A stretch of 38,757 bases of DNA, taken from the NCBI GenBank assembly GCA_041577335.1, contig JBFGJH010000026.1, positions 1 through 38,757 on the forward strand, in the 5' to 3' direction. Made by a program: the position numbers and the translations under genes. Positions 824 to 22,226 of the stretch are shown one piece after another. Every line of letters begins with the position of its first letter. Position 1 is the stretch's first letter. Source of the stretch: Acidimicrobiia bacterium. Lineage in GTDB: Bacteria > Actinomycetota > Acidimicrobiia > Spongiisociales > JAENVV01. The notes beneath the pieces are model-generated. The model was not told the DNA's origin. It worked only from the letters and a program-made list of their open reading frames with translations, and ran no database searches.

Positions 824-1231
824 TCAGATGAACCGGCGAGGCCGAGGCCAATACCTCCAGGCAACCCGCCGACACCGACTGATCGGAATCGGTCCGAGCG
901 TGCGGCTGTCGCTCGAGATCGTGCGTGAGTCGCCCAACACGAAGACGGTGTCTCCGGATACCTGCCATGACGCTTTGCCCGAAGTCACCGAGGTGGTCCA
1001 CGGATCGGCGAAGCTCTCCCCATTGATTGCCACGTCGCCGTCGGCAACGGTGATCACCTCGCCGGGAAGCCCGACGATGCGCTTCACCAGGTGAAATCCC
1101 GGCTGGTGTGGATGCTCGAACACCACCACCTGCCCGCGAGCGACCGACAGGAGCCGTACGGTGATCACGTAATCACCGTCAGACAATGCGGGTTCCATAG
1201 AGGACTCTGCGATGGCGAAACGTCGAATCAT
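824..1231 (-). CDS. sodX: S26-family peptidase, probable nickel-SOD maturation protease
   Basis: SSMEP (catalytic Ser), VKRI (catalytic Lys) and GDSRTISSDSR signal-peptidase motifs; no N-terminal TM helix; divergent from sodN. Confidence 0.75.
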   Translation of the reverse strand: MIRRFAIAESSMEPALSDGDYVITVRLLSVARGQVVVFEHPHQPGFHLVKRIVGLPGEVITVADGDVAINGESFADPWTTSVTSGKASWQVSGDTVFVLGDSRTISSDSRTLGPIPISRCRRVAWRYWPRPRRFI

Positions 1232-1292
1232 GGTGTACCCGGCGACAGTGTATCGTCACAGCAGTACGCGACATCTAGGAAGGAGCCGAACC

Positions 1293-1709
1293 ATGGGCCT
1301 TTTCAAGCCCAGAAGCCTGGCCCACGCACACTGTGATCTCTTTTGCGGTGTTTACGATCCGGCCCAGGCCAAGATCGAAGCGCTTTCGGTGCTGAAGTCA
1401 GCTCAGAAGTATCAGGACAGCGATGACGAGGTGTTCCGAGCCCGGGCGCTGGCGATTAAGGAGCAGCAGGCCGAGCTGTGCAAGCACCACCTGATGGTGC
1501 TGTGGGCCGACTTCTTCGCACCCGAACACGCAGAGCAGTTCCCGCAGTTGCACGATCTGTTTTGGCGGGCCATCAAGGCTGCCGGCGATGCCAAGAAATC
1601 GGCTGATCCGGCCGAGGGCGAGAAGCTGGTTGCCCTGATCGATGAGATCGCAGAGATCTTCTGGCAGACGGAGAAAGCCAAGGGCATGGGGGTCTACCCA
1701 CCCGCATGA
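1293..1709 (+). CDS. sodN: Nickel superoxide dismutase precursor
   Basis: ATG at 1293 follows SD GGAAGGAG. Short leader ending AHA, then Ni-hook HCDLFCGVYDPAQA and KHHLMVLWADFF. Confidence 0.93.
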   Translation: MGLFKPRSLAHAHCDLFCGVYDPAQAKIEALSVLKSAQKYQDSDDEVFRARALAIKEQQAELCKHHLMVLWADFFAPEHAEQFPQLHDLFWRAIKAAGDAKKSADPAEGEKLVALIDEIAEIFWQTEKAKGMGVYPPA

Positions 1710-7127: not shown

Positions 7128-8111
7128 ATGCGCCGCCTATTCGTTTTATTCGCCGCAACGGCACTGTTGCTGGCATCCGTACCGGCGACGATGGCCCTGT
7201 CGCACCAATCGTTGACGGTCAGCGTCGTCAAGGCACCCGTCACGCCGGACGGCACCACTGCAGGTTCCGTCACAGACTTTGTCCTCACCTTCGTGGATAT
7301 CGATCCCGCAGTCGACGGTATCAGCATGAAGAAAGGCGGCTCGATCTCGGCTCGCCTGCCGGCGGGGTTTGTCAACACCGCCGATGGAACCGAGAACACG
7401 GCCATCATCCTGCAGGGATGGCCACAAAGCCCACCTTTCCCGTTCATCTGGGACACCACGGTCGTCGGAAACAGAGTGACCGCCACCCTGACGGCCGATT
7501 ATCTCGTGGGCGCATTCGGGCCGGGCCCCAAGCAGTTCCACCTGTTGCTCGAGTCGTTCCGAAATCCCGGCCCGGGCCTCTACGAGGTTGGACTGGTTGT
7601 CAGACCTGATCCGGCCTCCAACGTGCGGTACAACGGCACCGGCACGGTCCTCATCAGCCCGCGGGCAACCCCAAGCGTTGAAATCGTCAGCGTCTTCAGT
7701 GGGGGAGGGCCACCACCCCCATTCAACAACCCGCTGTTTCAGACGGTGTCAGCAGGCGACGACTCGCTCGATGTCGGCGTCTATTTCTGGGAGCGAGGGA
7801 GCTTCGTTGCCGACGGCATCGTCAACCCATTCCTCGACGTTGACATCGAGATGAACAACCTGGAGCGTGGTCGGCTTACCCAATTCGGCCACACCGTCGG
7901 TCATATCGAGATCGAGGCTCCCGCCGGGGCGGATGAGTTCGCCGTCACGAATGACGGCCCATCATTCCTCGGCTCGACGGCCGTCACGGGGCTCGACGTG
8001 GGCGTCATGGTTGCCAGGCTGAGCACCGACCCGGACGCCACGGGCGACTACACCATCACCTTCGTGATGAACGGCGGCAACACCAAAGAGTTCCACGTCA
8101 CAGCTGAGTAA
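7128..8111 (+). CDS. Secreted hypothetical protein (beta-rich)
   Basis: Strong SD GAGGAGG, Sec-type signal MRRLFVLFAATALLLASVPATMA, GC3-biased codons; family not recognised. Confidence 0.75.
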   Translation: MRRLFVLFAATALLLASVPATMALSHQSLTVSVVKAPVTPDGTTAGSVTDFVLTFVDIDPAVDGISMKKGGSISARLPAGFVNTADGTENTAIILQGWPQSPPFPFIWDTTVVGNRVTATLTADYLVGAFGPGPKQFHLLLESFRNPGPGLYEVGLVVRPDPASNVRYNGTGTVLISPRATPSVEIVSVFSGGGPPPPFNNPLFQTVSAGDDSLDVGVYFWERGSFVADGIVNPFLDVDIEMNNLERGRLTQFGHTVGHIEIEAPAGADEFAVTNDGPSFLGSTAVTGLDVGVMVARLSTDPDATGDYTITFVMNGGNTKEFHVTAE

Positions 8112-8363
8112 GCCCACGCGGATGTGACGCCGACCGCAGCTCGGGGAGCCGCGATCGATGGCGCTCACATGGAATCCGTGAGCAGCTCGGTATTGCCGAC
8201 ACCCGTGTTCGGCCGCTCGTGATGCGTATGTCGCAGGTTTGGGCGTCCCGGGGCTGGAGGTCATCGATCGACGGGCCCATCGGGTACTCACCAGGAGCAT
8301 CATTTGCCTCGGGTTGCGAGGGCCTCATGGAGCTGAGCGCCCTGAGTATTCAGTGAACGAACC

Positions 8364-8391
8364 TTGACCTGCGTAAGACGCAGGATATACT
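8364..8391 (+). promoter_or_regulatory. Sigma70-type promoter containing a palindromic operator-like site
   Basis: TTGACC (8364-8369), 16-nt spacer, TATACT (8386-8391), then GTG start 7 nt later. Inverted repeat CCTGCGT-aag-ACGCAGG at 8368-8384. Confidence 0.65.
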
Positions 8392-8398
8392 GCGGTAC

Positions 8399-8788
8399 GT
8401 GCAGAATAACTCCCGGGATATTCTTCCTATCTTGCGTACCGACACCCAGCGCGAGCTGCTGATCGAGCTTTTCTTCGAAACTCGGGCACCTCGGACGCTG
8501 TCCGACCTTGCTCGCGCCATCGGTGTCGACCAAACCACGGTGATGAGAGAGGTCAATCGGCTGCTCGCGAGCGGGGTCGTTCTCGAAGAACGGGTCGGGC
8601 GGTCGCGCACGGTGGCCATCAACGAGGCCAGCCCGTTCACAGGGCCGCTTCGTCAGCTGATCAAGGTCGTGTACCAGCCGCTCGATGACACCGCAGACGA
8701 TCGTTTGCCGGCATTCGCAAGTCGTCATGGCCGCTACCACTCGAGCCACGAGCGCCGGCCCCTTCCCTCGTCACGGAGGCGAGGATGA
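8399..8788 (+). CDS. Winged helix-turn-helix (ArsR/MarR-like) protein
   Basis: ILPILRTDTQRELL...TLSDLARAIGVDQTTVMREVNRLLASGVVLEERVGRSRTV has HTH plus wing; the C-terminal ~30 aa look poorly conserved. Confidence 0.7.
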   Translation: MQNNSRDILPILRTDTQRELLIELFFETRAPRTLSDLARAIGVDQTTVMREVNRLLASGVVLEERVGRSRTVAINEASPFTGPLRQLIKVVYQPLDDTADDRLPAFASRHGRYHSSHERRPLPSSRRRG

Positions 8789-8865: not shown

Positions 8866-9444
8866 ATGCCATCAGAAGCCGAAGTCCGAGATGTGGTTCG
8901 CCGAGTGGTGGCCGGGCTCGCCGTCGAATCGGACTCGCCGGCCGCGGCCGCTTCTCTCGTCGCCCCCGCCGAACAACCTTCCCATGTCACGATCGCCATC
9001 GGTTGCGATCACGGTGGTTTCCCGCTCAAGGAGCGGCTGGGGTTCCGACTCAAGGAGCAGGGCTACTCCGTTGTCGATTGCGGCACCCACAGCGCCGAGT
9101 CGGTCGACTATCCCGATTTTGCCCATGCCGTCGCCGAGCAAGTGTCTCGAGGAGACGCAACCTATGGGATCATCATCGACGGAGCAGGCATTGGGTCTGC
9201 CATGGTGGCGAACAAGGTGCCAGGAGTCAGAGCAGCCCTGTGCTACGACCTGTCGAGCGCCCGCAACTCACGAGAGCACAACCATGCCAACGTGTTGACG
9301 CTGGGCGCCGGACTGATCGGCGCCAACCTCGCCCAACAGATCACCGAAACGTGGCTCGAGACGCCTTGGGGACCTGGCCGGCATGCCAATCGTGTCGACA
9401 AGATCACAGCAGTCGAACACAGATACCTCCGGAGTGAGACATGA
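8866..9444 (+). CDS. rpiB: RpiB/LacAB-family sugar-phosphate isomerase with N-terminal encapsulation peptide (BMC cargo)
   Basis: IAIGCDHGG, SVDYPD, ANKVPGVRAA, REHNHANVL, GRHANRV motifs. N-terminal helix SEAEVRDVVRRVVAGL plus Ala/Pro linker. Start at 8866 preferred (TAACGT 8 nt upstream); 8785 is an alternative. Confidence 0.88.
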   Translation: MPSEAEVRDVVRRVVAGLAVESDSPAAAASLVAPAEQPSHVTIAIGCDHGGFPLKERLGFRLKEQGYSVVDCGTHSAESVDYPDFAHAVAEQVSRGDATYGIIIDGAGIGSAMVANKVPGVRAALCYDLSSARNSREHNHANVLTLGAGLIGANLAQQITETWLETPWGPGRHANRVDKITAVEHRYLRSET

Positions 9445-10289
9445 ATCAACAAGAGCTCGTTGAAGCCGTCACCCGAGAAGTCCTTGCGGCTCTCAACGTC
9501 GGCGACCCATGCGAGGACTGCCACGGTTCCTGTGCCGCCCACAGCCCGGACAAGGTGCGCAGCGTGGTTGCCAACGGGGCCGACCGGGTCAGCTATCACG
9601 GGCAGGGCGCCGAGGTTCCCATGGACCTGGCCAAGTACATCGACCACACCCTGCTGAAGCCGGATGCGACGGCCGATGACATCGACACGCTCTGCGCAGA
9701 GGCCAAGGACTACGGATTCGCCTCCGTATGTGTGAACCCGGCATGGGTGAAGCGGGCCGCCCAGAATCTGCGGGGTAGTGATGTTCGGGTCGCGTCGGTG
9801 GTTGGGTTTCCGTTCGGTGCGACACCGTCGGAGATCAAGGCGATGGAGGCGCGGCGGGTGCTCCGCGATGGGGCTCGCGAAATCGACATGGTCATCAACA
9901 TTGGCGCGCTGAAGTCGGGTCAGCACGACGTTGTGCGGAGTGACATCGCCAAGGTGTCCGACGCATGTCACGAGGTCGGGGCCCTCAACAAGGTCATCAT
10001 CGAAACGAGCCTGCTCGCGGACGAGGAGAAGGTGATCGCTTCCCACCTCGCCCAGCTGGCCAAGGCCGACTACGTGAAGACGTCGACCGGCTTCGCCGGC
10101 GGAGGGGCCACCGTTCAAGACGTCCTCCTCATGCGCGAAACCGTCGGTCCCAAGATGGGAATCAAGGCGTCGGGTGGCGTCCGCAATCGCGAAGACGCCG
10201 AGGAGATGATCGCCGCCGGGGCCACCCGCATCGGAGCTTCAGCAGGAATCGTGATCGTTACAGGAGGAACTTCAGATGGGCAATATTGA
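9441..10289 (+). CDS. deoC: Deoxyribose-phosphate aldolase (DERA) with encapsulation peptide and Cys/His-rich N-terminal module
   Basis: [34 protein letters not shown] (Schiff-base Lys), [16 protein letters not shown] motifs. Confidence 0.95.
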
Positions 10290-10902
10290 ACTACGGTCGT
10301 TCGTGTTCCTCGACAGCCTCCAGCCGCAATACGCCGCGTTCATCGGCACCACCGCCTCGGGCTTTCTCCCACTTGCCCATGAAGCGTCGCTCTTCGTCGA
10401 GATTTCGCCAGGCATCGAGATCAACCGGCTCACCGACGTGGCATTGAAGTCCAACGCCGTGAAGCCGGGCATGCAGATCGTCGAGCGAGTATTCGGCCTG
10501 CTGGAAGTGCATTCGCCCGATCAGGCCGAGACCCGCGGCGCCGGCGCGGCGATCCTCGAAGCCGTCGATCTCAAGGAGGCGGACCGGCTGAAGCCGAAGA
10601 TCTTGTCGAGCCAGATCGTGCGCCGCATCGACGATCACCAGGCGCAGCTCATCAACCGTATGCGCCACGGTCAGATGATCACGCCGGGCCAGACCTTGTA
10701 TGTGTTGGAGTGCATACCGGCAGCGTACGCAGCGCTGGCAGCCAACGAGGCGGAGAAGGCCGCCAAGATCAACGTGCTCGAAGTGCGTGCTTTCGGCGCC
10801 GTCGGTCGGGTCTATCTCGGTGGAGAAGAGGCTGACATCGATGTTGGTTGGAGAGCGGCGGTGGCTGCCCTCGAGGGCATCACCGGTCGCGATCAAGACT
10901 GA
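10276..10902 (+). CDS. BMC-T shell protein, CcmP/CsoS1D-like stacked permuted tandem type
   Basis: [40 protein letters not shown] and [11 protein letters not shown] motifs; SD CAGGAGG. Confidence 0.88.
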
Positions 10903-10937
10903 GTTTCGAAACGAATCACAAAGAGGAGGAACAACAC

Positions 10938-11222
10938 ATGGCTGATGCATTGGGAATGATCGAAGCGCGCAGCTTCCCGGCGATGGTCGAGGCTGCCGAT
11001 GCGATGGTGAAGGCGGCCAAGGTAGAGCTGGTTTCCTATGAAGAAACGGGCGGAGGCTACGTGACCGCCGTGATCCGCGGTGACGTCGCAGCTGTCAAGG
11101 CGGCCGTCGAGGCCGGTTTGCGCGGCGCAGAACGCGTCGGCGAGATCGTAGCCAGCCACGTCATCGCCCGTCCGCACGAAACCATCGACGAGATCCTGCC
11201 CCTCGGCCGTCGAGAAAGCTAG
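10938..11222 (+). CDS. BMC-H hexameric shell protein (EutM/PduA/CcmK-like)
   Basis: MADALGMIE...[11 protein letters not shown]...[10 protein letters not shown]...HVIARPH; strong SD AAGAGGAGG. Confidence 0.96.
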
Positions 11223-11230
11223 AGGCTCCC

Positions 11231-11518
11231 ATGCTCCTCGCACGCGTTGCGGGAACCGTGGTGGCCAGCCGCAAGGAACCGCGGCTCGACGGGCTGAAGT
11301 TCTTGCTCCTCGAGCAGCTCGACGTCGACAACAAGGCCACGGGCAGCTATGTCGTGGCTGCAGACGCGGTCGGTGCGGGCGTTGGCGAAGTCGTCATGTA
11401 CGCCAGCGGCAGCTCGGCTCGCCAAACCGAGTACACCCATGAGCGACCATGTGATGCAGTGGTCATGGCGATCGTCGACTCGTGGGAGGTGGGCGGCGAT
11501 GACCGCTTCACCAAGTAG
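11231..11518 (+). CDS. BMC-P vertex protein (EutN/CcmL family)
   Basis: [44 protein letters not shown] motifs. Confidence 0.95.
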
Positions 11519-11521
11519 GCC

Positions 11522-12979
11522 ATGAGCCTGTCGGAGGAAGAAATCCAGGCGATCATCGCCCGGGTTCACCAACGTTTGGGAGATGTGCCCGCCGGATCTC
11601 GGCCGGCGGCGGCGGTGGCCGCCCAGTCGGAGCTCGAGGCCGAGATCGAGCTCGGCGACGGCATTTTCCGTACCATCGACGAAGCGGTGACCGCGGCCGG
11701 CCGAGCCCAGGTGAGCTATGCCGCGATGGGTCTCAAGGCTCGCTACGACATCATCGAAGGCATCCGCCGGTCGATGCGTGACAACGCCGAGTCGCTGGCG
11801 ATGCTGGCGCATACCGAAACCGGCCTCGGCCGGGATGAGGACAAGGTCAAAAAGAACCGGCTGGTGATCGAAAAGACGCCGGGACCCGAAGACCTCGAGC
11901 CACAGGCGGTGACCGGCGACGCCGGCATGGCCGTGATCGAATGGGCTCCACTGGGACTGGTGGGGGCCATCACGCCCACCACCAACCCGACGTCGACCAT
12001 CATCAACAACACCATTTCGATCCTGTCGGGCGGCAACGCCGTGGTGTTCAACGTTCACCCCGGAGCCAAGAAGGTCTCGGCTGAGAACATCCGGCTCATG
12101 AATCGCGCCGTGGTGGCGAGTGGCGGTCCACCCAACCTCATCACGGCGATACCCACCCCGACCATCGACAGCGCCAAGGAGTTGATGACTCATCCCGGTG
12201 TGCGAGTCCTGCTGGTGACCGGCGGCCCTGCCGTGGTGCGCGAGGCGCTTCGCACCGACAAACGAGCCGTCGCGGCTGGTCCCGGCAACCCGCCCGTCGT
12301 CGTCGACGAAACGGCGGATATCGAAAGAGCCGCCCGGGCCATCGTGGCGGGAGCGTCGTTCGACAACAACATCATTTGCACCGACGAAAAGGAGGCGATC
12401 GTCGTCGACTCGGTTGCTGATCGCCTGCTGCGAGAGATGGCCGGAGCAGGTGCGTACGTCCTCAAGCAACACGAGCTCAAACGGCTCGAGCGGGTGATCT
12501 TTCGCGAAATGGGGCCGCCCAACAAGCCGGGGGTCATCAACCCGCAATGGATCGGCAAGAACGCTGCCGTCATCCTCAACGAGATCGGGCTGCAACTCGA
12601 CCAGGACGTTCGCCTGGCAGTGGCCGAGGTCCCCAACGATCACAATCTCGTGTGGACCGAGCAGATGATGCCGGTCTTCCCGGTTACCAGGGTCGCCAAT
12701 GTCGACGCCGCCATCGACCTTGCGGTCCGGGCGGAGCACGGATTCCGTCACACCGCAGGCATTCACTCGACCAACGTCGAGACCATCACCAAGATGGCCA
12801 GAGCCATGAACTGTTCGATCTTCGTGGCCAACGGATCGTTCTTCTCCGGCCTCGGAGAAGGCGGCGAGGGCTACTCGTCGTTTTCCATCGCCAGTCCCAC
12901 CGGAGACGGCCTCACCCGATCGCGTACGTTCTCCCGGCCACGCCGAGTGAACGTCGTCGGCGCATTGCGGATCGTCTGA
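11522..12979 (+). CDS. Acylating aldehyde dehydrogenase (EutE/PduP-like) with encapsulation peptide
   Basis: PTTNP, VTGGPAVV, GPGNPP, SFDNNIICTDEKE (catalytic Cys), EQMMP, EHGFRHTA motifs; N-terminal helix SEEEIQAIIARVHQRL. Confidence 0.93.
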   Translation: MSLSEEEIQAIIARVHQRLGDVPAGSRPAAAVAAQSELEAEIELGDGIFRTIDEAVTAAGRAQVSYAAMGLKARYDIIEGIRRSMRDNAESLAMLAHTETGLGRDEDKVKKNRLVIEKTPGPEDLEPQAVTGDAGMAVIEWAPLGLVGAITPTTNPTSTIINNTISILSGGNAVVFNVHPGAKKVSAENIRLMNRAVVASGGPPNLITAIPTPTIDSAKELMTHPGVRVLLVTGGPAVVREALRTDKRAVAAGPGNPPVVVDETADIERAARAIVAGASFDNNIICTDEKEAIVVDSVADRLLREMAGAGAYVLKQHELKRLERVIFREMGPPNKPGVINPQWIGKNAAVILNEIGLQLDQDVRLAVAEVPNDHNLVWTEQMMPVFPVTRVANVDAAIDLAVRAEHGFRHTAGIHSTNVETITKMARAMNCSIFVANGSFFSGLGEGGEGYSSFSIASPTGDGLTRSRTFSRPRRVNVVGALRIV

Positions 12980-12986
12980 GGGCCCG

Positions 12987-13583
12987 TTGACCGATAACCA
13001 GCGCTTGGGAACGGCCATCGGGCTGCTCGAGTACAGCTCGATCGCCGCGGGAATCGAAGCAGGGGACGCCATGGTGAAACGAGCCCCGCTCGACGTGATT
13101 CGAGCAGGGACCGTCCATCCGGGCCGCTACCTGGTCCTCGTGGGAGGAGAAGTGGCAGACATCGAAGAGGCGATCGATGCGGCTCGACAAAAGGACACCG
13201 ATCAGCTCGTCGACGAGCTATTCCTCCCCGACCCCCATCCCGATCTCGTCGATGCGTTGGCCGGTCTGAGGGTTACCGGGACGGGCGAGGCGCTCGGGAT
13301 CATCGAGACCTTGTCGGTCGCCGCCATCATTCGCTCGGCAGACGCCGGCCTCAAGGGGGCCCGAGTGGTGCTGCGAGAGATCTTCCTGGCCGATGATCTC
13401 GGCGGCAAGGGATACTTGCTGTTCTCGGGCCAACTCACGGAAGTAGAAGCCGCCGTGGAACTGGGTGTTGCCAGAGCGCCCGGAGAGGTCCTCGCCTGGA
13501 GAGTCATAGCGCAGCTCCACGAGGAGATGGACGAGAATCTCGCCGCCGACGGACGATTCTCCGCCCGGATGAAGGAGGGATGA
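12987..13583 (+). CDS. BMC-T shell protein, PduT-like single-layer tandem type
   Basis: Two BMC domains, AIGLLEYSSIAAGIEAGDAMVK and ALGIIETLSVAAIIRSADAGLK, plus LGGKG; TTG start. Confidence 0.9.
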   Translation: MTDNQRLGTAIGLLEYSSIAAGIEAGDAMVKRAPLDVIRAGTVHPGRYLVLVGGEVADIEEAIDAARQKDTDQLVDELFLPDPHPDLVDALAGLRVTGTGEALGIIETLSVAAIIRSADAGLKGARVVLREIFLADDLGGKGYLLFSGQLTEVEAAVELGVARAPGEVLAWRVIAQLHEEMDENLAADGRFSARMKEG

Positions 13584-13587
13584 TTCG

Positions 13588-13890
13588 GTGCACCTGGGCC
13601 GAGTGATCGGGACGGTGGTCGCCACCGAGAAGACCCCCAACCTCGATGGGGTTCGGTTCCTCATCGTCCAGCCACTGACCCGCGACGAGAAGCCTGACGG
13701 GCGGCCAGTGATTGCCGCTGACGGGCTTGCCACAGCCGGGCCGGGTGAGCTCGTGTACTTCGTCGGCTCCCGGGAGGCAGCGCAGGCCATGCCAGAGCCA
13801 TTCGTCCCAGTGGACCACGCCATCGTCGGCATCGTCGATCAACTCCATGTCGAGCCATTGCCGGCCAAGAAACGAAAGCGAAAGAAATGA
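13588..13890 (+). CDS. BMC-P vertex protein (EutN/CcmL family) with basic C-terminal tail
   Basis: HLGRVIGTVVATEK, AGPGE, SREAA, PVDHAIVGIVD motifs; GTG start after AAGGAGG. Confidence 0.93.
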   Translation: MHLGRVIGTVVATEKTPNLDGVRFLIVQPLTRDEKPDGRPVIAADGLATAGPGELVYFVGSREAAQAMPEPFVPVDHAIVGIVDQLHVEPLPAKKRKRKK

Positions 13891-14156
13891 AGCTCGCCCG
13901 AGTCTCCGGCACCGTGGTATCCACGATCAGCGCCCCGATCTTCGACAACCAACGCCTGCTGCTGTGCGACTATGTCGATCCCGACGGCAGTCCTTCTGGT
14001 GGCTATGTCATCGCAGTCGATACGGTTGACGCTGGACCAGGTGAGATCGTTCTCATCCTCGATGAGGGCAACGGTGCCCGCCAGATCATGGGTGAGACCA
14101 CCGCCCCCATCCGTGCCGTGGTCGTAGGCATCGTCGACGAGGTGGCCCCGGCCTAG
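13887..14156 (+). CDS. BMC-P vertex protein (EutN/CcmL family)
   Basis: MKLARVSGTVVST, AVDTVDAGPGE, DEGNGARQ, PIRAVVVGIVD motifs; ATGA overlap with the previous gene. Confidence 0.93.
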   Translation: MKLARVSGTVVSTISAPIFDNQRLLLCDYVDPDGSPSGGYVIAVDTVDAGPGEIVLILDEGNGARQIMGETTAPIRAVVVGIVDEVAPA

Positions 14157-14437: not shown

Positions 14438-14932
14438 ATGATGAGAACGAGATTTCGTGCCTTGTCCGTGATGAGCTTGCTTGTGCTTCTCTTTGTTGTG
14501 GCAGCTCCGGTCCGGGCGGACTCGCCGATCGATGTCGAGGGCCACTGGACCTACTACGTCTTCGACCTGGAAGTCAGGGAAGAAGGATGCGCCACATTCA
14601 TGGTCACATATGACCTCAGTCTTTGGAGTGGTGGCTTCGAGGCCGCCACGATTGACCGAGGTCAAGTGGGGATCAACTGCTCCGGCCTGGCGACATACCG
14701 GGCCCAGAACTACTTCACCGGCGTGACCATCGACGGCAAGTCCGGAGACTTCGTGATGGCCGTAGAAGGTCGCCAGCCTGTGGGAGAAATGTGGCGGGGC
14801 CAATGGGAGATCATCAGTGCCTCGGGGGACCTCGAAGGCATGTACGGATCCGGCACCTGGTGGGGACCCGGTGCGGGCGGACCGTTCATCTGGGGTCATC
14901 TCGACTATGCAGGCACGGTGGCGTTTGACTAG
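14438..14932 (+). CDS. Secreted hypothetical protein, possibly DUF3224-like beta-barrel
   Basis: Signal peptide MMRTRFRALSVMSLLVLLFVVAAPVRA; TIDGKSG and WEIISASGDLEGMYGSG resemble DUF3224-type motifs. Confidence 0.65.
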   Translation: MMRTRFRALSVMSLLVLLFVVAAPVRADSPIDVEGHWTYYVFDLEVREEGCATFMVTYDLSLWSGGFEAATIDRGQVGINCSGLATYRAQNYFTGVTIDGKSGDFVMAVEGRQPVGEMWRGQWEIISASGDLEGMYGSGTWWGPGAGGPFIWGHLDYAGTVAFD

Positions 14933-15008: not shown

Positions 15009-15896
15009 TCAGAAATGGCTCCGGATCGCCTTCCGCGGCCCGTATTTGGGAGCCGAGAAACCAGCCGATTTGAGGAGGCGAATGACGCGACCCCGGTGTC
15101 CGGCGAAGGGTTCGAGGAGTTCGAGCATGCGCTCGTCGGTACCTCGTGGTTCGCCGGCCAGTGCCCACGAGACGGTGTTGGGAATGTGAAAGTCTCCCAC
15201 CGGCACTGCGTCGGGGTCGCCGTGCACGGCTCCGGTCACGAGGGCAGCTGTCCACGCCCCGACACCCTGAAACGCAGTGAGCAGGCGGGTCGTTTCGGCT
15301 GGCGCCATGCCGGCCACCGTCTCGAGCTTGCGTGCTCGGGCGGCGACCCTCTTGATGGTCTCGGCTCGTTTCCGCTCAACGCCGAGTGAGTGGTACTCAT
15401 AGCTGGGAAGCCCGGCGAGCACGCTGGGCTCGGGCAACACCCGAAGGGGGCGCGGTCCTGGCGCCGGCTCGCCATGACGGCGCAGAATCGCTTGCAGGCT
15501 GCGTTTGCTTTCGATGCCCGTGACCTTCTGTCCCAAGATCGCGGGGATGAGGGCCTCGAAGACCAGGTGTGTTCGGCCGATGCGATCAGCCGGGTGGTGG
15601 CGCTGGATGCGGACGATCAGAGGATGGTCGGTCACGAAGTCGTCTGGGTTGTCACTGGCACCACACAGGTCGGGAGCGTGCTCGAGAGTCCATTCGGACC
15701 CCGCTCCCCAGGCCGTTGCCTCTGCCGATGTTCCCTGGACACGGATATGAACTGTGGCAGGCCCATCGGGGGTCCGAGTGGCCCGCCACGCTTCGTTTCC
15801 TTCGAAGGCGGTTGTCCCGGTGGTGATGATGGCGGCCGCTCCGATCGTGCCGCCCAGCCTCACCGGTCCCGGCAGTTCGAACTGGCGCTGATTCAT
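15009..15896 (-). CDS. DNA-3-methyladenine glycosylase 2 family (AlkA/HhH-GPD) protein
   Basis: Start MNQRQFEL at 15896. WRATRTPDGPAT, ILGQKVTG, HhH FQGVGAWTA, and GDPDAVPVGDFH motifs. Confidence 0.88.
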   Translation of the reverse strand: MNQRQFELPGPVRLGGTIGAAAIITTGTTAFEGNEAWRATRTPDGPATVHIRVQGTSAEATAWGAGSEWTLEHAPDLCGASDNPDDFVTDHPLIVRIQRHHPADRIGRTHLVFEALIPAILGQKVTGIESKRSLQAILRRHGEPAPGPRPLRVLPEPSVLAGLPSYEYHSLGVERKRAETIKRVAARARKLETVAGMAPAETTRLLTAFQGVGAWTAALVTGAVHGDPDAVPVGDFHIPNTVSWALAGEPRGTDERMLELLEPFAGHRGRVIRLLKSAGFSAPKYGPRKAIRSHF

Positions 15897-15897
15897 G

Positions 15898-16347
15898 TCA
15901 CAGGGGTCGGACGCGGTAGATGAGGCTGCCGGTGGCGACCTTCGTCTCAGTGGCCACCTCGAACACCTCGGCCTGGCAGAACACCGTTGTGGTTCCGCGC
16001 TTGGCCACCCACGCCTCGGCCACGACGTCACTCGTGGCAGCGTCGAGGTAGTCGACATTGAGGCCGAGCGTGATGAGTGCCACCCGATGATCGTAGAACG
16101 CGGCGATTGCCGGTACCACTGCCGTGTCGATGAGTGCCGCGATGGCCCCACCGTGCACGATGTCCTGCGGCTGCATGTTCTCGACCCGCCCGGGGAGCCG
16201 CATACGGGCGTAGCCCGCTCGCACCTCTTCGAGCTGCATGCCGAGGTGTTTCGCCAGATAAGGCGTGTCCCATTGGGCGTACCTGCTCCACGGCCGAGCG
16301 CGGTCCTCATCGAGGGCCTCGAACCGGTGGGCGTGATGCGGATCCAT
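15898..16347 (-). CDS. PaaI-family hotdog thioesterase
   Basis: IVHGGAIAALIDTA, TLGLNVDYL and KRG motifs. Start MDPHH at 16347 with TACGCT 8 nt upstream. Confidence 0.88.
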   Translation of the reverse strand: MDPHHAHRFEALDEDRARPWSRYAQWDTPYLAKHLGMQLEEVRAGYARMRLPGRVENMQPQDIVHGGAIAALIDTAVVPAIAAFYDHRVALITLGLNVDYLDAATSDVVAEAWVAKRGTTTVFCQAEVFEVATETKVATGSLIYRVRPL

Positions 16348-16394: not shown

Positions 16395-17360
16395 CTACTC
16401 GGGCTGCTGCAACGAGCGAGCGAACTCGGTGATTTTGGCGGCCGCCTCGCGTCCGTCTCCGATCGGATCCAGAATTCCGTTGTGGGTGGCTGCCGGGATC
16501 ACATACACCTCGGCAACCCATCCCGCGTTGGCCAGGAGGTCGGCGAACAGCTGGCTGGAATCGAGGGGAACGAGGCGATCGCCGGACCCGTGAATGAGCG
16601 TTACCGGAAACAGTGGCGTTTCGACATAGCTCTGCGGGTTGCCGAGCTCCCATGCCTCGGGAACGTCGGCGGGCGCACCGCCGAACCAGGGAGCCATGAA
16701 GACGCCGAGCTCGACGGTGTCGTATGGCCCGGCCAAGCCGACGAGACCGACTACGGTCGGCGTGGCTCGGTCGAGGCAGCGACCAGATGCAAATGCGTCG
16801 CCACTCATCGCAACCGTGGCGCCGAGATGAGCACCGGCCGAGTGACCAACAACGATCACCTCGGATGACCCTCCCAAACCGGGACTGGTGACTGCTGCCG
16901 TGGACATTGCGCAATAGACGTCCTGATAGCTGTGGGGGTAGCCGCCGCCACTCTGACCGTTGAGGTAGGTGGCGTTGTACACGACGGCACCCTGTCCAGC
17001 GAGCGTCCGGGCAAACTCCCTGGTCGTCATCGAATCACCTCCGTACCACGACCCACCATGGAAGAAGACGACGGTGGGGTAGTCGCCTTCGTCGATGGGA
17101 TAGAACACTTCGGCGACCAAGTCGTCCACGACCGCCACTTCTGTTCGGTCGGTGGCGAGGGGCGTAGCTGGTCGCGAACGGGCGGTTGCCGCTTCAGAAG
17201 TCGGCGGCGTCGTGGCAAGCACCGTCGTCGGAGGAGCCGTCGTGGGGGGAACACTCGTGGTTGGCGAAGGTGGATCGGGTTGGGTAGACGGCGCGGGCGC
17301 TGCCACGCACGCCCCTGCGACGAGGGCAACGATCAGTGCTGCGCCGATCTGAGATTTCAT
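16395..17360 (-). CDS. Lipoprotein alpha/beta hydrolase (esterase/lipase)
   Basis: Lipobox-like VAGAC, Pro/Thr linker, HGGSW oxyanion motif, GHSAG nucleophile, HGSGDRLVP, ATH. Confidence 0.85.
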   Translation of the reverse strand: MKSQIGAALIVALVAGACVAAPAPSTQPDPPSPTTSVPPTTAPPTTVLATTPPTSEAATARSRPATPLATDRTEVAVVDDLVAEVFYPIDEGDYPTVVFFHGGSWYGGDSMTTREFARTLAGQGAVVYNATYLNGQSGGGYPHSYQDVYCAMSTAAVTSPGLGGSSEVIVVGHSAGAHLGATVAMSGDAFASGRCLDRATPTVVGLVGLAGPYDTVELGVFMAPWFGGAPADVPEAWELGNPQSYVETPLFPVTLIHGSGDRLVPLDSSQLFADLLANAGWVAEVYVIPAATHNGILDPIGDGREAAAKITEFARSLQQPE

Positions 17361-18208
17361 ACGAGCGTTTCCAGGAGTAGATGGACGGTGAGATTGGTGG
17401 CGTCACCCCACGGCTCTGCGATATCGCGGACGACGCCTTCGTCCAGGATATGATCACTCGTCCGATACGAGAAGCTGACGGCCTTGCGTACTCCCAGATC
17501 ACCCGCCGGGATGATGTTGGCTCTCCCCAAGCAACGGGCCAGCAGCCACTCGGCCGTCCAGCGGCCCACTCCTCGCATCTGGACGAGATGATGAACCGCC
17601 TCCTCGTCGCCCATCTCGGTCACGCCATCGAGCCAGCCGTCCGCCGCGGCACGTGCGATGCTCACGATGTACTCGGCTTTGCGGGTGGTGAATTGCATGG
17701 CGCGTATCTCGGCCGGGTCAGCGACGGCGATGGCATCCGGCGACGGGAACTCGTACACCTCGACTCCGTCGAGCTCGTATCGGCTTCCGTACCGTTCGAC
17801 CAGTCGGCGGCGGGTTGTGAGCGCCCAGGTCAAGTTCACTTGCTGAGCGGTGACAGACGTGATCAGCGACTCAAACGGGTCGACGACGAGGGGAGGTCTA
17901 TGGCCGGGAAATCGTTGGATCAGAGCTCTGACGATCTCGTCGGATTCTGCCAGCCTGAGGAGCGGCTCGCGGGGTAGCGACTCGGCCAGGCGCCAGCGAA
18001 TGTCTTCGACCGCCGCCGTGAGGTCTCCCTCGCCCTCGACGACCATCTCGGGTCCCTCCTGGTGGGCGCGGTAGGCCGTGTCGCCCACCACCCGATACAG
18101 CCAGCCGTCGGTCACAACATTCACAGGATCGAGCCCATGCCGGGTGAAACGCCCGAGCCAGCGGGCGAGGTCGAGAGCGCTTTCGGGAGTCCAGCGAACC
18201 GAACTCAG
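17357..18208 (-). CDS. DNA-3-methyladenine glycosylase II (AlkA-like)
   Basis: DPFESLITSVTAQQV, FTTRKAEYI, HhH RGVGRWTAE and PAGDLGV motifs. The track start is GTG 18124, but the open frame extends to a CTG at 18208 overlapping the pgl stop. Confidence 0.82.
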   Translation of the reverse strand: MSSVRWTPESALDLARWLGRFTRHGLDPVNVVTDGWLYRVVGDTAYRAHQEGPEMVVEGEGDLTAAVEDIRWRLAESLPREPLLRLAESDEIVRALIQRFPGHRPPLVVDPFESLITSVTAQQVNLTWALTTRRRLVERYGSRYELDGVEVYEFPSPDAIAVADPAEIRAMQFTTRKAEYIVSIARAAADGWLDGVTEMGDEEAVHHLVQMRGVGRWTAEWLLARCLGRANIIPAGDLGVRKAVSFSYRTSDHILDEGVVRDIAEPWGDATNLTVHLLLETLV

Positions 18209-18900
18209 GACGTTGCTCCAGTGATCTCGACCGCGGCGGCGGCATCGACGATGAACGTGATGTCGGCGGTGGCGTCTCGCACCAGCCTGCCCGCCGGAAA
18301 CCGGTCGTCGCCGGCGACGACGGCCGCCAGAGCCGACGCCTTGTTGCCTCCACTCACCACGAAGATCAGTTCATCAGAGCTGCTCAAGTAGCCGAGAGTT
18401 GCCGTGACTCGCCACGTGTCTTTGGACTCCACCCAGGAGGCCACGTAGGTACCCGACGCCTCCAGGGCGTCGGTCCCCGGGAACAACGAGGCGGTATGGC
18501 CGTCATCTCCCATGCCCAACAGCACCATCCGCCGGGCCCCCGGGGGCGTTGCCGCCACGATCTGAGCGCCGTATGCAATGGCGGCCTCCTCTGGCGCTCG
18601 GTCGGCGGCGTACGGGAACGGGAGGAACCTCGCAGGGACATGTCGAGCCAGCAAACGGTCAGCCATCCCGGTGTTGGAGTCGGCATGGTCGGGCGGAACC
18701 CAGCGCTCATCGCCCAGCCACAAGACCGTCCGGGACCAGTCGAGCTGAGCGCTCGTGAGTTGCTCGTAGATCGGCTTCGGAGTGCTGCCGCCCGCCAGCC
18801 CGAAGCTGACCGCGCCCGGGCAGTCGGCGTGCCGTTGGCTGATGTGCTCGGCGGCGCGTTGGGTGAGGTGGTCGGAATCTCCGCAGACGATGATCCGCAT
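18205..18900 (-). CDS. pgl: 6-phosphogluconolactonase
   Basis: LAGGSTP, GDERWVPPDHADSN, LLGMGDDGHTASLFPG, RVT, SGGNKA motifs. Confidence 0.93.
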   Translation of the reverse strand: MRIIVCGDSDHLTQRAAEHISQRHADCPGAVSFGLAGGSTPKPIYEQLTSAQLDWSRTVLWLGDERWVPPDHADSNTGMADRLLARHVPARFLPFPYAADRAPEEAAIAYGAQIVAATPPGARRMVLLGMGDDGHTASLFPGTDALEASGTYVASWVESKDTWRVTATLGYLSSSDELIFVVSGGNKASALAAVVAGDDRFPAGRLVRDATADITFIVDAAAAVEITGATS

Positions 18901-21700: not shown

Positions 21701-22144
21701 TCAGCCCTGTTCGAGGGCCAGAACTTTGTTGAGTCGGCGGATGAAGCGTTCTTCGCGTTGGAATTGTGCAGTCAGGAACGAATCGACGACTTCGTTGGCG
21801 ACTTCGACCCCGACGACTCGGCTTCCGAGGCAGAGGACGTTGGCGTCGTCATGTTCGACTGCTTGGTGGGCCGTGTAGACGTCGGTTCCTTGCAGCGCTC
21901 GGACCCCCTTGATCTTGTTGGCGGCGATAGCGGCACCGGCGCCAGAGCCGCACACGACGATCCCACGTTCTGCGCGTCCGTCGGCCACTGCGTTTCCGAC
22001 TGCGGCTGCGAAGTCGGGGTAGTCGACCGACTCTCGTGAGTGGGTGCCGAAGTCGGTAACGGCGTGGCCGACGTCGGCCAGCCGCCTGGCGAGATGATCT
22101 TTGAGCTCATAACCGGCGTGGTCGGCTCCGATGGCAATTCGCAC
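21701..22144 (-). CDS. rpiB: Ribose-5-phosphate isomerase B (canonical, no N-terminal extension)
   Basis: GTG start after AGAGGA; IAIGADHAG, VDYPD, VCGSGAG, EHDDANVL motifs. Confidence 0.93.
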   Translation of the reverse strand: MRIAIGADHAGYELKDHLARRLADVGHAVTDFGTHSRESVDYPDFAAAVGNAVADGRAERGIVVCGSGAGAAIAANKIKGVRALQGTDVYTAHQAVEHDDANVLCLGSRVVGVEVANEVVDSFLTAQFQREERFIRRLNKVLALEQG

Positions 22145-22226
22145 GTGTCGTCCTCTCTGAACGCTCTTCACGTTAGCCGCAGGCCAGGTTGTTCCTGATG
22201 ATGGGTGCCCGTCGTACACTGCGGAC

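Follow-up and report, generated by a model that had tools for sequence, protein, structure and literature searches.

An SPU3-type microcompartment operon in an acidimicrobial genome, predicted to enclose deoxyribose-5-phosphate aldolase with a CoA-acylating aldehyde dehydrogenase

The window analyzed here, a 38,757-nucleotide stretch of a contig from an Acidimicrobiia bacterium, harbors nine genes on the forward strand. The first two are rpiB (8866 to 9444; PF02502), whose RpiB-family product has a predicted N-terminal targeting helix at residues 3 to 19 and Asp105 in place of the catalytic Cys, and deoC (9441 to 10289; TIGR00126 at 274 bits, cut-off 117), which encodes deoxyribose-5-phosphate aldolase (DERA) extended at its N terminus by 60 residues. 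They are followed by genes for a CcmP-like gated-pore shell trimer (BMC-Tdp, 10276 to 10902), a shell hexamer (BMC-H, 10938 to 11222), a first pentamer (BMC-P, 11231 to 11518; PF03319), an acylating aldehyde dehydrogenase with a predicted N-terminal targeting helix (AldDH, 11522 to 12979; PRK15398, 616 bits against a cut-off of 403), a PduT-like trimer that lacks the Fe-S pore Cys (BMC-Ts, 12987 to 13583), and two adjacent further pentamer paralogues, pentamer 2 (13588 to 13890; PF03319) and pentamer 3 (13887 to 14156; PF03319). Judged from catalogued locus tags, pentamers 2 and 3 occupy the "orange" and "grey" paralogue positions, respectively. A preliminary description of the sequence had listed these nine genes in this order, and this was confirmed, with every open reading frame intact and intergenic gaps of -14 to +35 bp. 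A start codon for rpiB further upstream, at 8785, was ruled out, as the Met at 8866 is conserved among close relatives. RpiB and DERA are encoded as separate, unfused genes, and together with AldDH they are the only enzymes of the locus. BMC-domain genes are confined to the operon, and no satellite shell genes were found in the host genome.

The same nine genes in the same order are present in 25 of 35 related loci, and the remaining 10 are cut short with identical order. The order also occurs in 14 of 80 deoC loci, from four phyla. Among 301 genomes of the class, 50 of 51 pentamer-2 matches fall in a single taxonomic order. The Acidimicrobiia-like host proposed earlier is supported by the AldDH tree and by how the nearest named homologues are labeled.

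Upstream of rpiB lies a small gene (8399 to 8788, forward strand) for a 129-residue winged-HTH protein, with Pfam HTH matches below cut-off and matches to Atlas wHTH clusters at 0.96 to 0.97. A gene of this kind is found directly 5' of rpiB in related loci L021 to L024, L049, L050, L058, and L061, and it is probably a tenth gene that heads the operon. Directly 5' of its start codon is a sigma-70-like promoter (TTGACC-16-TATACT, 8364 to 8391, forward strand). The promoter scan returned one site against 0.8 expected by chance, which is weak on its own; the -10 region is kept in the window and eight related loci. As the predicted promoter abuts the start codon, the transcript is probably leaderless. 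Two tandem palindromes, CTGC-N7-GCAG (8369 to 8383 and 8390 to 8404), span the promoter and start codon. They are kept in the window and in all eight related loci with a close HTH orthologue, and the exact pair occurs only once in the host genome. The palindromes are likely an operator, and the HTH protein, within a subclade, is likely both the first gene product and an autoregulator that would control its own promoter through them. A wider deo regulon under this protein is unsupported, as the operator-like site is absent from eight deoB regions.

The preliminary description assigned the locus to the SPU class of microcompartments, and the components that mark this class are all present, namely a DeoC-type aldolase (PF01791, with catalytic Asp/Lys/Lys), AldDH, an Asp-type RpiB, and a BMC-P triplet. 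The DERA catalytic residues D149, K213, and K242 are invariant in 65 sequences, and the DERA model superimposes on solved DERAs with a TM score of 0.96, normalized by target length. In AldDH, Cys286 sits in an SFDNNxxC motif, and the best solved match is 5JFL (E 1e-126).

The RpiB protein requires separate consideration. Asp replaces the catalytic Cys in 86 of 89 compartment-type RpiB matches, the other three being unparsed, and this replacement is shared by all SPU RpiBs (PMC11585597). A second rpiB in the host, of the Cys type, lies at 21701 to 22147 of the window. The SPU class had been described as known but physiologically poorly characterized. The former is correct, but part of its biochemistry has since been characterized, as the SPU6 DERA is active on deoxyribose-5-phosphate and forms a complex with its own RPI (PMC11585597). 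The compartment RpiB is likely a packaging partner that would bind DERA and aid its encapsulation, and it is likely not a working ribose-5-phosphate isomerase. One may ask instead whether this Asp-type protein actively isomerizes some other sugar or sugar phosphate, in which case the true entry substrate would not be deoxyribose-5-phosphate. All but three of the 89 matches (86) share one DGAGIG motif, a uniformity tighter than a scaffold might require, and Dwyer 2024 allows for a rare RPI substrate (PMC11585597). We nevertheless consider this improbable, given that the SPU6 RPI has negligible activity on ribose-5-phosphate (PMC11585597), that RPI is absent from SPU5, that the host has its Cys-type rpiB, and that the compartment DERA is usually the sole deoC, as described below.

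All three enzymes had been described as carrying N-terminal amphipathic helices with low-complexity linkers. The three helices are present, but the DeoC linker is not of low complexity. The hydrophobic moments of the helices are borderline on the Fauchere-Pliska scale (shuffle p values of 0.028, 0.056, and 0.037), with p values of 0.18, 0.13, and 0.16 on the Eisenberg scale. Related RpiB and DeoC proteins share the N-terminal helix pattern, and the helices of RpiB, DERA, and AldDH are predicted to be targeting peptides. Solved non-compartment DERAs align to the window DeoC only from residues 53 to 66 on. The extension that precedes this region consists of the helix, a Cys-rich stretch (CxxCxxxCxxH, residues 24 to 34; 9510 to 9542, forward strand), and a conserved GAxR element. 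We found no mention of the Cys-rich stretch in the SPU literature searched. At least two Cys residues are present in 81 of 92 DERA extensions and CxxCxxxC in 30 of 92, counts in which start codons were chosen by a heuristic and near-duplicate loci are included. The stretch is possibly a metal site in the window protein; a metal site universal to DERA extensions was rejected, as Cys is missing from 5 of the 92 and occurs singly in 6. Residues 21 to 60, which include the Cys-rich stretch, have pLDDT values of 41 to 55 in the alignment-based DERA fold, too low to speak for or against a metal site, and the single-sequence fold, with a pLDDT of 40, was discarded.

With regard to the shell, BMC-Tdp gave no Pfam match. 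Its CcmP-like placement is by best match, CcmP (5LSR, E 1e-82) ranking ahead of CsoS1D (E 2e-50) among solved structures, and its score against NF053796 (324 bits) is below the cut-off of 340. BMC-H has the standard interface motifs (KAAK25 and ARPH77) and a GGG pore. In BMC-Ts, His44 aligns where the Cys of CP(G/S)K would stand, and the Fe-S pore Cys is missing in 50 of 51 related BMC-Ts proteins.

This gene content is that of SPU3 as defined by Sutter 2021 (PMC8217296), and Dwyer 2024 records SPU3 among Actinobacteria, including a locus in an Acidimicrobiia bacterium (PMC11585597). Our assignment rests on the text definition, locus-tag order, and tree neighbors rather than on the authors' HMMs. 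In common with SPU3, the window operon has only AldDH, DERA, and RpiB as enzymes, with rpiB before deoC and N-terminal peptides on all three (PMC8217296; PMC11585597). Its shell likewise has a single BMC-H of standard type, three BMC-P paralogues, a BMC-Tdp resembling CcmP, and a BMC-Ts that lacks the pore Cys and is not accompanied by PduS. The catalogued SPU3 locus tags fit the order Tdp-H-(P)-(AldDH)-Ts-P-P, where genes between tags are inferred from spacing. The tags are A2Y55 07485 (Tdp), 07480 (H), 07465 (Ts), and 07455 (grey P); A2Z37 05630 (Tdp), 05635 (H), 05655 (orange P), and 05660 (grey P); DCY40 08485 (Tdp) and 08505 (Ts); and A2Z12 09720 (P) and 09730 (Ts). The homologue search with BMC-Ts gave no direct link to the catalogued accessions, and the locus tags searched for were not found in the PNAS 2024 supplements.

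The preliminary description had raised the possibility of an undescribed subtype, based on gene set, order, and host. What can be said for a subtype specific to Acidimicrobiia is that in the AldDH tree the Acidimicrobiia enzymes form one supported group (24 rows) with a few from Chloroflexota and Acidobacteriota, and that the window operon differs from SPU3, in the part of its description available to us, in having the upstream HTH gene with its conserved operator-like site and in the basic tail that ends pentamer 2. The tree is a quick version, from which we claim no donor or direction of transfer. However, the locus matches published SPU3 in its genes, its shell proteins, and the phylum of its host, the order fits the locus tags of catalogued actinobacterial loci, an Acidimicrobiia locus is already listed, and the HTH gene and basic tail are restricted to part of one bacterial order. 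A new subtype is thus very unlikely, and the window locus contributes one more genome carrying an already catalogued compartment, from a lineage in which it had been listed before.

Other systems are more distant. SPU2 has a fourth BMC-P (an extra "green" copy) whereas the window operon has three, and the pore Cys is present in approximately 80% of SPU2 BMC-Ts proteins where the window protein has His. SPU6 of Chloroflexi bacterium GWB2_54_36, the SPU with biochemical data, resembles the window in its DERA catalytic residues, Asp-type RPI, absence of PduS, and long DERA extension, which also has four Cys residues in the published construct sequence (PMC11585597). In contrast, the SPU6 AldDH has a C-terminal peptide and the window AldDH an N-terminal helix, the AldDHs fall in separate clades of the tree (where L098 is a listed SPU6 host), and SPU6 has its own gene order and a GntR-like regulator. 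The HO microcompartment of Haliangium ochraceum shares a similar BMC-Tdp (E 1e-73 and 7e-69), a Cys-less BMC-Ts, and a BMC-P triplet, but satellite loci often house its aldolase, and its AldDH is closest to those of SPU5 and SPU7.

The host genome provides a context for the substrate. In it, deoB adjoins pdp, and two PNP-family genes (nucleoside phosphorylases) are present besides; in related loci L062 and L064, pdp lies just 3' of the operon, together with PNP in L062. The compartment deoC is the only TIGR00126 match in the host genome and, among 34 genomes with a complete deoC in the locus, the sole full-length deoC in 32. A free deoC is present in 22 of 25 genomes without the locus (the 22 and the 25 each include one unpublished genome, G036). 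The enclosed DERA therefore appears to replace the ordinary deoC in its bacterial order. As the operon is common in one order and usually carries the sole deoC, this suggests that routine deoxynucleoside breakdown proceeds via an organelle. Only 26 of 61 relatives yielded a DeoB match, so a different mutase would be required in many genomes that carry the locus.

Our direct observations comprise gene identities and order, catalytic residues, extensions, and upstream-pathway genes elsewhere in the genome. With a shell predicted to enclose both DERA and a CoA-acylating AldDH, this intact SPU3-type operon very probably serves to convert the sugar of deoxynucleosides to glyceraldehyde-3-phosphate and acetyl-CoA. 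Cytosolic phosphorylases (Pdp and the two PNP-family proteins) and DeoB would yield deoxyribose-5-phosphate, which may enter through the BMC-H pore or the gated BMC-Tdp pore; DERA would split it, and the dehydrogenase would capture the acetaldehyde as acetyl-CoA. This chemistry, already put forward in the preliminary description, is consistent with both the published model and the residues identified here. No assayed SPU3 enzyme was found in the SPU literature searched. The weakest step is cofactor exchange. Neither PTAC nor acetate kinase was found in the host genome (90.75% complete), nor was MNdh, its three PF01512 proteins being NuoF-like by inspection and on other contigs; EutB and ComEC were likewise not found, and the single Fe-ADH has no obvious targeting helix. 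With PTAC and MNdh not found, cofactors would have to cross the shell, and because the locus itself lacks PTAC, an alcohol dehydrogenase, MNdh, and an Fe-S pore, NAD+/NADH and CoA/acetyl-CoA would need to exchange through the CcmP-like pore. A nine-gene system without a cofactor-recycling enzyme offers a compact test of NAD and CoA passage through a shell.

In principle the compartment could run in reverse, making deoxyribose-5-phosphate from glyceraldehyde-3-phosphate and acetaldehyde derived from acetyl-CoA. The DERA and acylating AldDH reactions are both reversible, and DeoB and the phosphorylases could likewise operate backwards. The host genome, however, has two ribonucleotide reductase genes, so such a deoxyribose bypass is unneeded, and we regard the synthetic direction as extremely unlikely compared with breakdown.

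Pentamer 2 ends in a basic tail (residues 90 to 100; 13855 to 13887, forward strand) with seven Lys/Arg residues in a row, and we found no Lys/Arg tail on the middle pentamer described in the SPU literature searched. The last 12 residues of pentamer 2 hold 5 to 7 Lys/Arg in all seven genomes of one family (f1) and in one further genome (G313), and 0 to 2 in the other 22 of 30 loci; a C-terminal end with at least seven is found in only 6 of 1952 likely host genes. The tail is 11 residues long in the window and at most 36 residues beyond the core in 119 parsed homologues. Among 22 "longer" pentamer matches, the 12 inspected were mostly P2-P3 joins or miscalled genes, and none had a long basic region. 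The tail might merely reflect the ribosome-binding site of the following gene, but the composition of long tails weakens this idea, as 33 of 35 have at least three Lys/Arg outside the last six residues; for the short tail of the window, such an origin is possible.

The closest parallel is AMC-P2 of Hodarchaeales, in an SPU-type compartment where the first of two adjacent pentamers after BMC-Ts carries a basic extension (PMC12747264). The equivalence with pentamer 2 is by operon position, compared through tags CEE45_05330, 05340, and 05345. The archaeal region differs in being disordered, 36 to 137 residues long, and shown to bind DNA and RNA, and its operon also holds MNdh, an Fe-S BMC-Ts, PTAC, and citrate synthase. 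That 2025 preprint states that a DNA-binding AMC-P2 vertex was "not observed in BMCs" (PMC12747264). We tentatively raise the possibility, doubtful as it is, that the tail in one Acidimicrobiia family and some Chloroflexota faces outward and binds nucleic acid, and that this vertex type arose in bacteria too, at the same operon position. If so, the tail would anchor the organelle to the nucleoid, or to DNA or RNA under degradation, and one of the three pentamers of the unexplained BMC-P triplet would have a function. The basic vertex tail offers a cheap test of why three pentamers persist in such shells. Some pentamer-2 tails carry PAAKK-like repeats.

Our results indicate that the locus is a real, ordinary SPU3 operon, belonging to a catalogued type of the sugar-phosphate-utilisation (SPU) bacterial microcompartments. 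All nine genes of the + strand (8866-14156) are intact and in the order proposed in the preliminary description (rpiB, deoC, BMC-Tdp, BMC-H, BMC-P, AldDH, BMC-Ts, BMC-P, BMC-P), with intergenic gaps of -14 to +35 bp and a GC content in line with that of the remaining window. Family scans and matches to solved structures confirm the identities of RpiB, DeoC (TIGR00126), BMC-H, BMC-P, the CcmP-like BMC-Tdp, the acylating AldDH (PRK15398), the PduT-like BMC-Ts and two further BMC-P proteins, and no further shell genes were found elsewhere in the genome (90.75% complete). The N-terminal helices described for the three enzymes are present and kept in relatives; judged only by hydrophobic moment they are borderline, with p 0.03-0.06 by one scale and 0.13-0.18 by a second.

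Passages of Sutter 2021 (PMC8217296) define SPU3 by AldDH, pfam01791 and pfam02502 enzymes and a shell of one standard BMC-H, a BMC-P triplet, a CcmP-like BMC-Tdp and a BMC-Ts without pore Cys, without PduS, in hosts that include Actinobacteria among others. The operon agrees with every item of this definition that was checked. The tags of catalogued SPU3 loci are compatible with Tdp-H-(P)-(AldDH)-Ts-P-P, where brackets mark genes placed by the spacing between tags. SPU3 entries in the locus table of Dwyer 2024 (PMC11585597) include five genomes named "Actinobacteria bacterium" and one named "EX267 Acidimicrobiia bacterium". In a quick AldDH tree the window enzyme is separate from SPU6 and groups with hosts of phyla listed for SPU3. 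Because definition, locus tags, host listing and tree agree, the operon corresponds to a subtype already described from the same lineage, and the earlier proposal of an undescribed subtype does not hold.

The nearest named homologues bear Acidimicrobiia labels. Within the host's order, BMC-Tdp was matched in 38 of 61 genomes, 36 with an SPU-type copy and 2 with only a different four-gene locus (46% identity). Among 39 retrieved stretches, 35 were SPU-type; 25 of these are complete, with nine genes ordered as in the window, and 10 are truncated and keep that order. The second pentamer gene (pentamer 2) was matched in 51/301 genomes of the class, 50 of them from this order. The nine-gene order was found in 14/80 deoC loci, in records titled Acidimicrobiia, Ilumatobacteraceae, Chloroflexota, Thermoanaerobaculia and Woeseiaceae. 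In the AldDH tree, the Chloroflexota, Thermoanaerobaculia and Ilumatobacteraceae enzymes (loci L062, L064-L070, L072) nest inside this order's group. The distinct four-gene locus, P-H-AldDH-Tdp, occurs in L042 (genome G014), L043 (G003), L044 (G033) and L045 (G022) and in content resembles the gene set published as MIC1; an SPU3 locus is also present in G022 and G033.

The deoC product (DERA) retains D149, K213 and K242, invariant across 65 sequences, and is predicted to fold as a DERA barrel. Dwyer 2024 (PMC11585597) reports cleavage of deoxyribose-5-P by the SPU6 orthologue, which also binds its RPI; this RPI had negligible isomerase activity. The window RpiB shares a Cys-to-Asp change with this SPU6 RPI, as do 86 of 89 RpiB matches. 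A second rpiB (21701-22147, - strand), 7.5 kb 3' of the operon, keeps the catalytic Cys and allows an internal comparison with the Asp-type copy. The DERA extension carries CxxCxxxCxxH at residues 24-34, a stretch over which the predicted model is of low confidence and of which a search of the main text of Dwyer 2024 (PMC11585597) found no mention. At least two Cys occur in 81/92 related extensions and none in 5/92; as a lead, the stretch is a candidate metal site.

In the genome deoB and pdp lie side by side and two PNP-family genes are present, and the deoB regions of relatives (L209, L210, L213, L214, L215) show a recurring upp/deoB/pdp/pnp/etf cluster; deoC was not among the genes scanned in five annotated deoB regions of the eight retrieved. 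Of 34 genomes with a full deoC in the locus, 32 have no other full TIGR00126 match, and a free deoC occurs in 22/25 genomes without the locus (21/24 leaving out G036) and is missing from three, all incomplete; these counts include kin and are not independent. Two results count against a complete account: DeoB was found in only 26/61 relatives, and searches of the 90.75% complete genome turned up neither PTAC nor acetate kinase, and neither MNdh nor an Fe-S pore. Part of the MNdh paper (PMC11626177) treats NAD+ regeneration as unresolved in loci with neither system. Cofactors might exchange through the gated BMC-Tdp pore, by analogy with a proposal made for acetyl-CoA in a section of Dwyer 2024 (PMC11585597). 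The presence of two ribonucleotide reductase genes in the genome speaks against the compartment having a biosynthetic role. Two Chloroflexota loci (L062, 6419-8362; L064, 13559-14887) have a pyrimidine-nucleoside phosphorylase just 3' of the operon on the opposite strand, together with a PNP in L062.

Genes flanking the window operon include two with signal-peptide-like starts, at 7128-8111 (+; without Pfam match) and 14438-14932 (+; weak DUF3224 match under cut-off). Two AlkA-like DNA glycosylase genes and a 6-phosphogluconolactonase gene lie just 3' (15009-15902, 17357-18124 and 18205-18900, all -). A nickel superoxide dismutase gene lies at 1212-1709 (+), and its 70% identical orthologue is directly 3' of the operon in L061 (7225-7680).

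A tenth gene, directly 5' of the operon (8399-8788), encodes a winged-HTH protein of 129 aa and is absent from most related loci. A sigma-70-like promoter (1 site versus 0.8 expected by chance) stops 7 bases 5' of its start codon. Two CTGC-N7-GCAG palindromes, 21 bases apart and the sole exact tandem pair in the genome, span this promoter and the start of the gene, a layout kept in 8/8 related loci with a close orthologue. This arrangement suggests that the protein regulates its own gene. A third, single operator-like site (8222-8236; score 16.5, ranking fourth genome-wide) lies 147 bases 5' of the pair. The C-terminal end of the winged-HTH protein (8749-8788) has a conserved basic RRPLPSxxRR-like motif after a variable linker in 8/8 orthologues.

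Pentamer 2 (13588-13890, +), right after BMC-Ts, ends in seven consecutive Lys/Arg; a C-terminal end with at least seven is rare in the genome (6 of 1952 likely genes). Among the best 30 of 51 matches to a tail-less query, all seven genomes of the window's family (window counted) have 5-7 Lys/Arg in the last 12 residues, as does G313; the remaining 22 have 0-2. When homologues were gathered by a database search that favoured tailed matches, 102/120 had at least four Lys/Arg, tails ran to 36 residues and six had PAAKK-like repeats. Three Chloroflexota loci have Pro/Ala/Arg-rich ends reaching 35-47 residues past the last conserved motif. BMC-P C-termini are expected to face the cytosol. For Hodarchaeales archaea, a preprint (PMC12747264) describes AMC-P2, a pentamer with a Lys/Arg-rich disordered region that binds DNA and RNA, as having no counterpart in bacterial microcompartments. 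The AMC-P2 gene is placed in its operon as pentamer 2 is here, with BMC-Ts on one side and the "grey" pentamer on the other. On the boldest reading, which is unlikely, the tailed pentamer would be a bacterial nucleic-acid-binding vertex protein. A putative role of the tail in DNA capture has against it that the tail is short, that most of the order lacks it, that it overlaps the initiation region of the next gene and that a search for ComEC found none. The literature searched held no description of a Lys/Arg tail on BMC-P, although subscription papers and supplements may; passages of Sutter 2021 (PMC8217296) treat extensions on BMC-H and enzymes. In database proteins P0241-P0244, P0246, P0248 and P0256, pentamers 2 and 3 form a single chain, possibly through sequencing frameshifts or as rare fusions; each of these proteins comes from one contig. 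L185, from G313 of another family, has a basic-tailed pentamer 2 with 82% identity to that of the window, which may reflect transfer.
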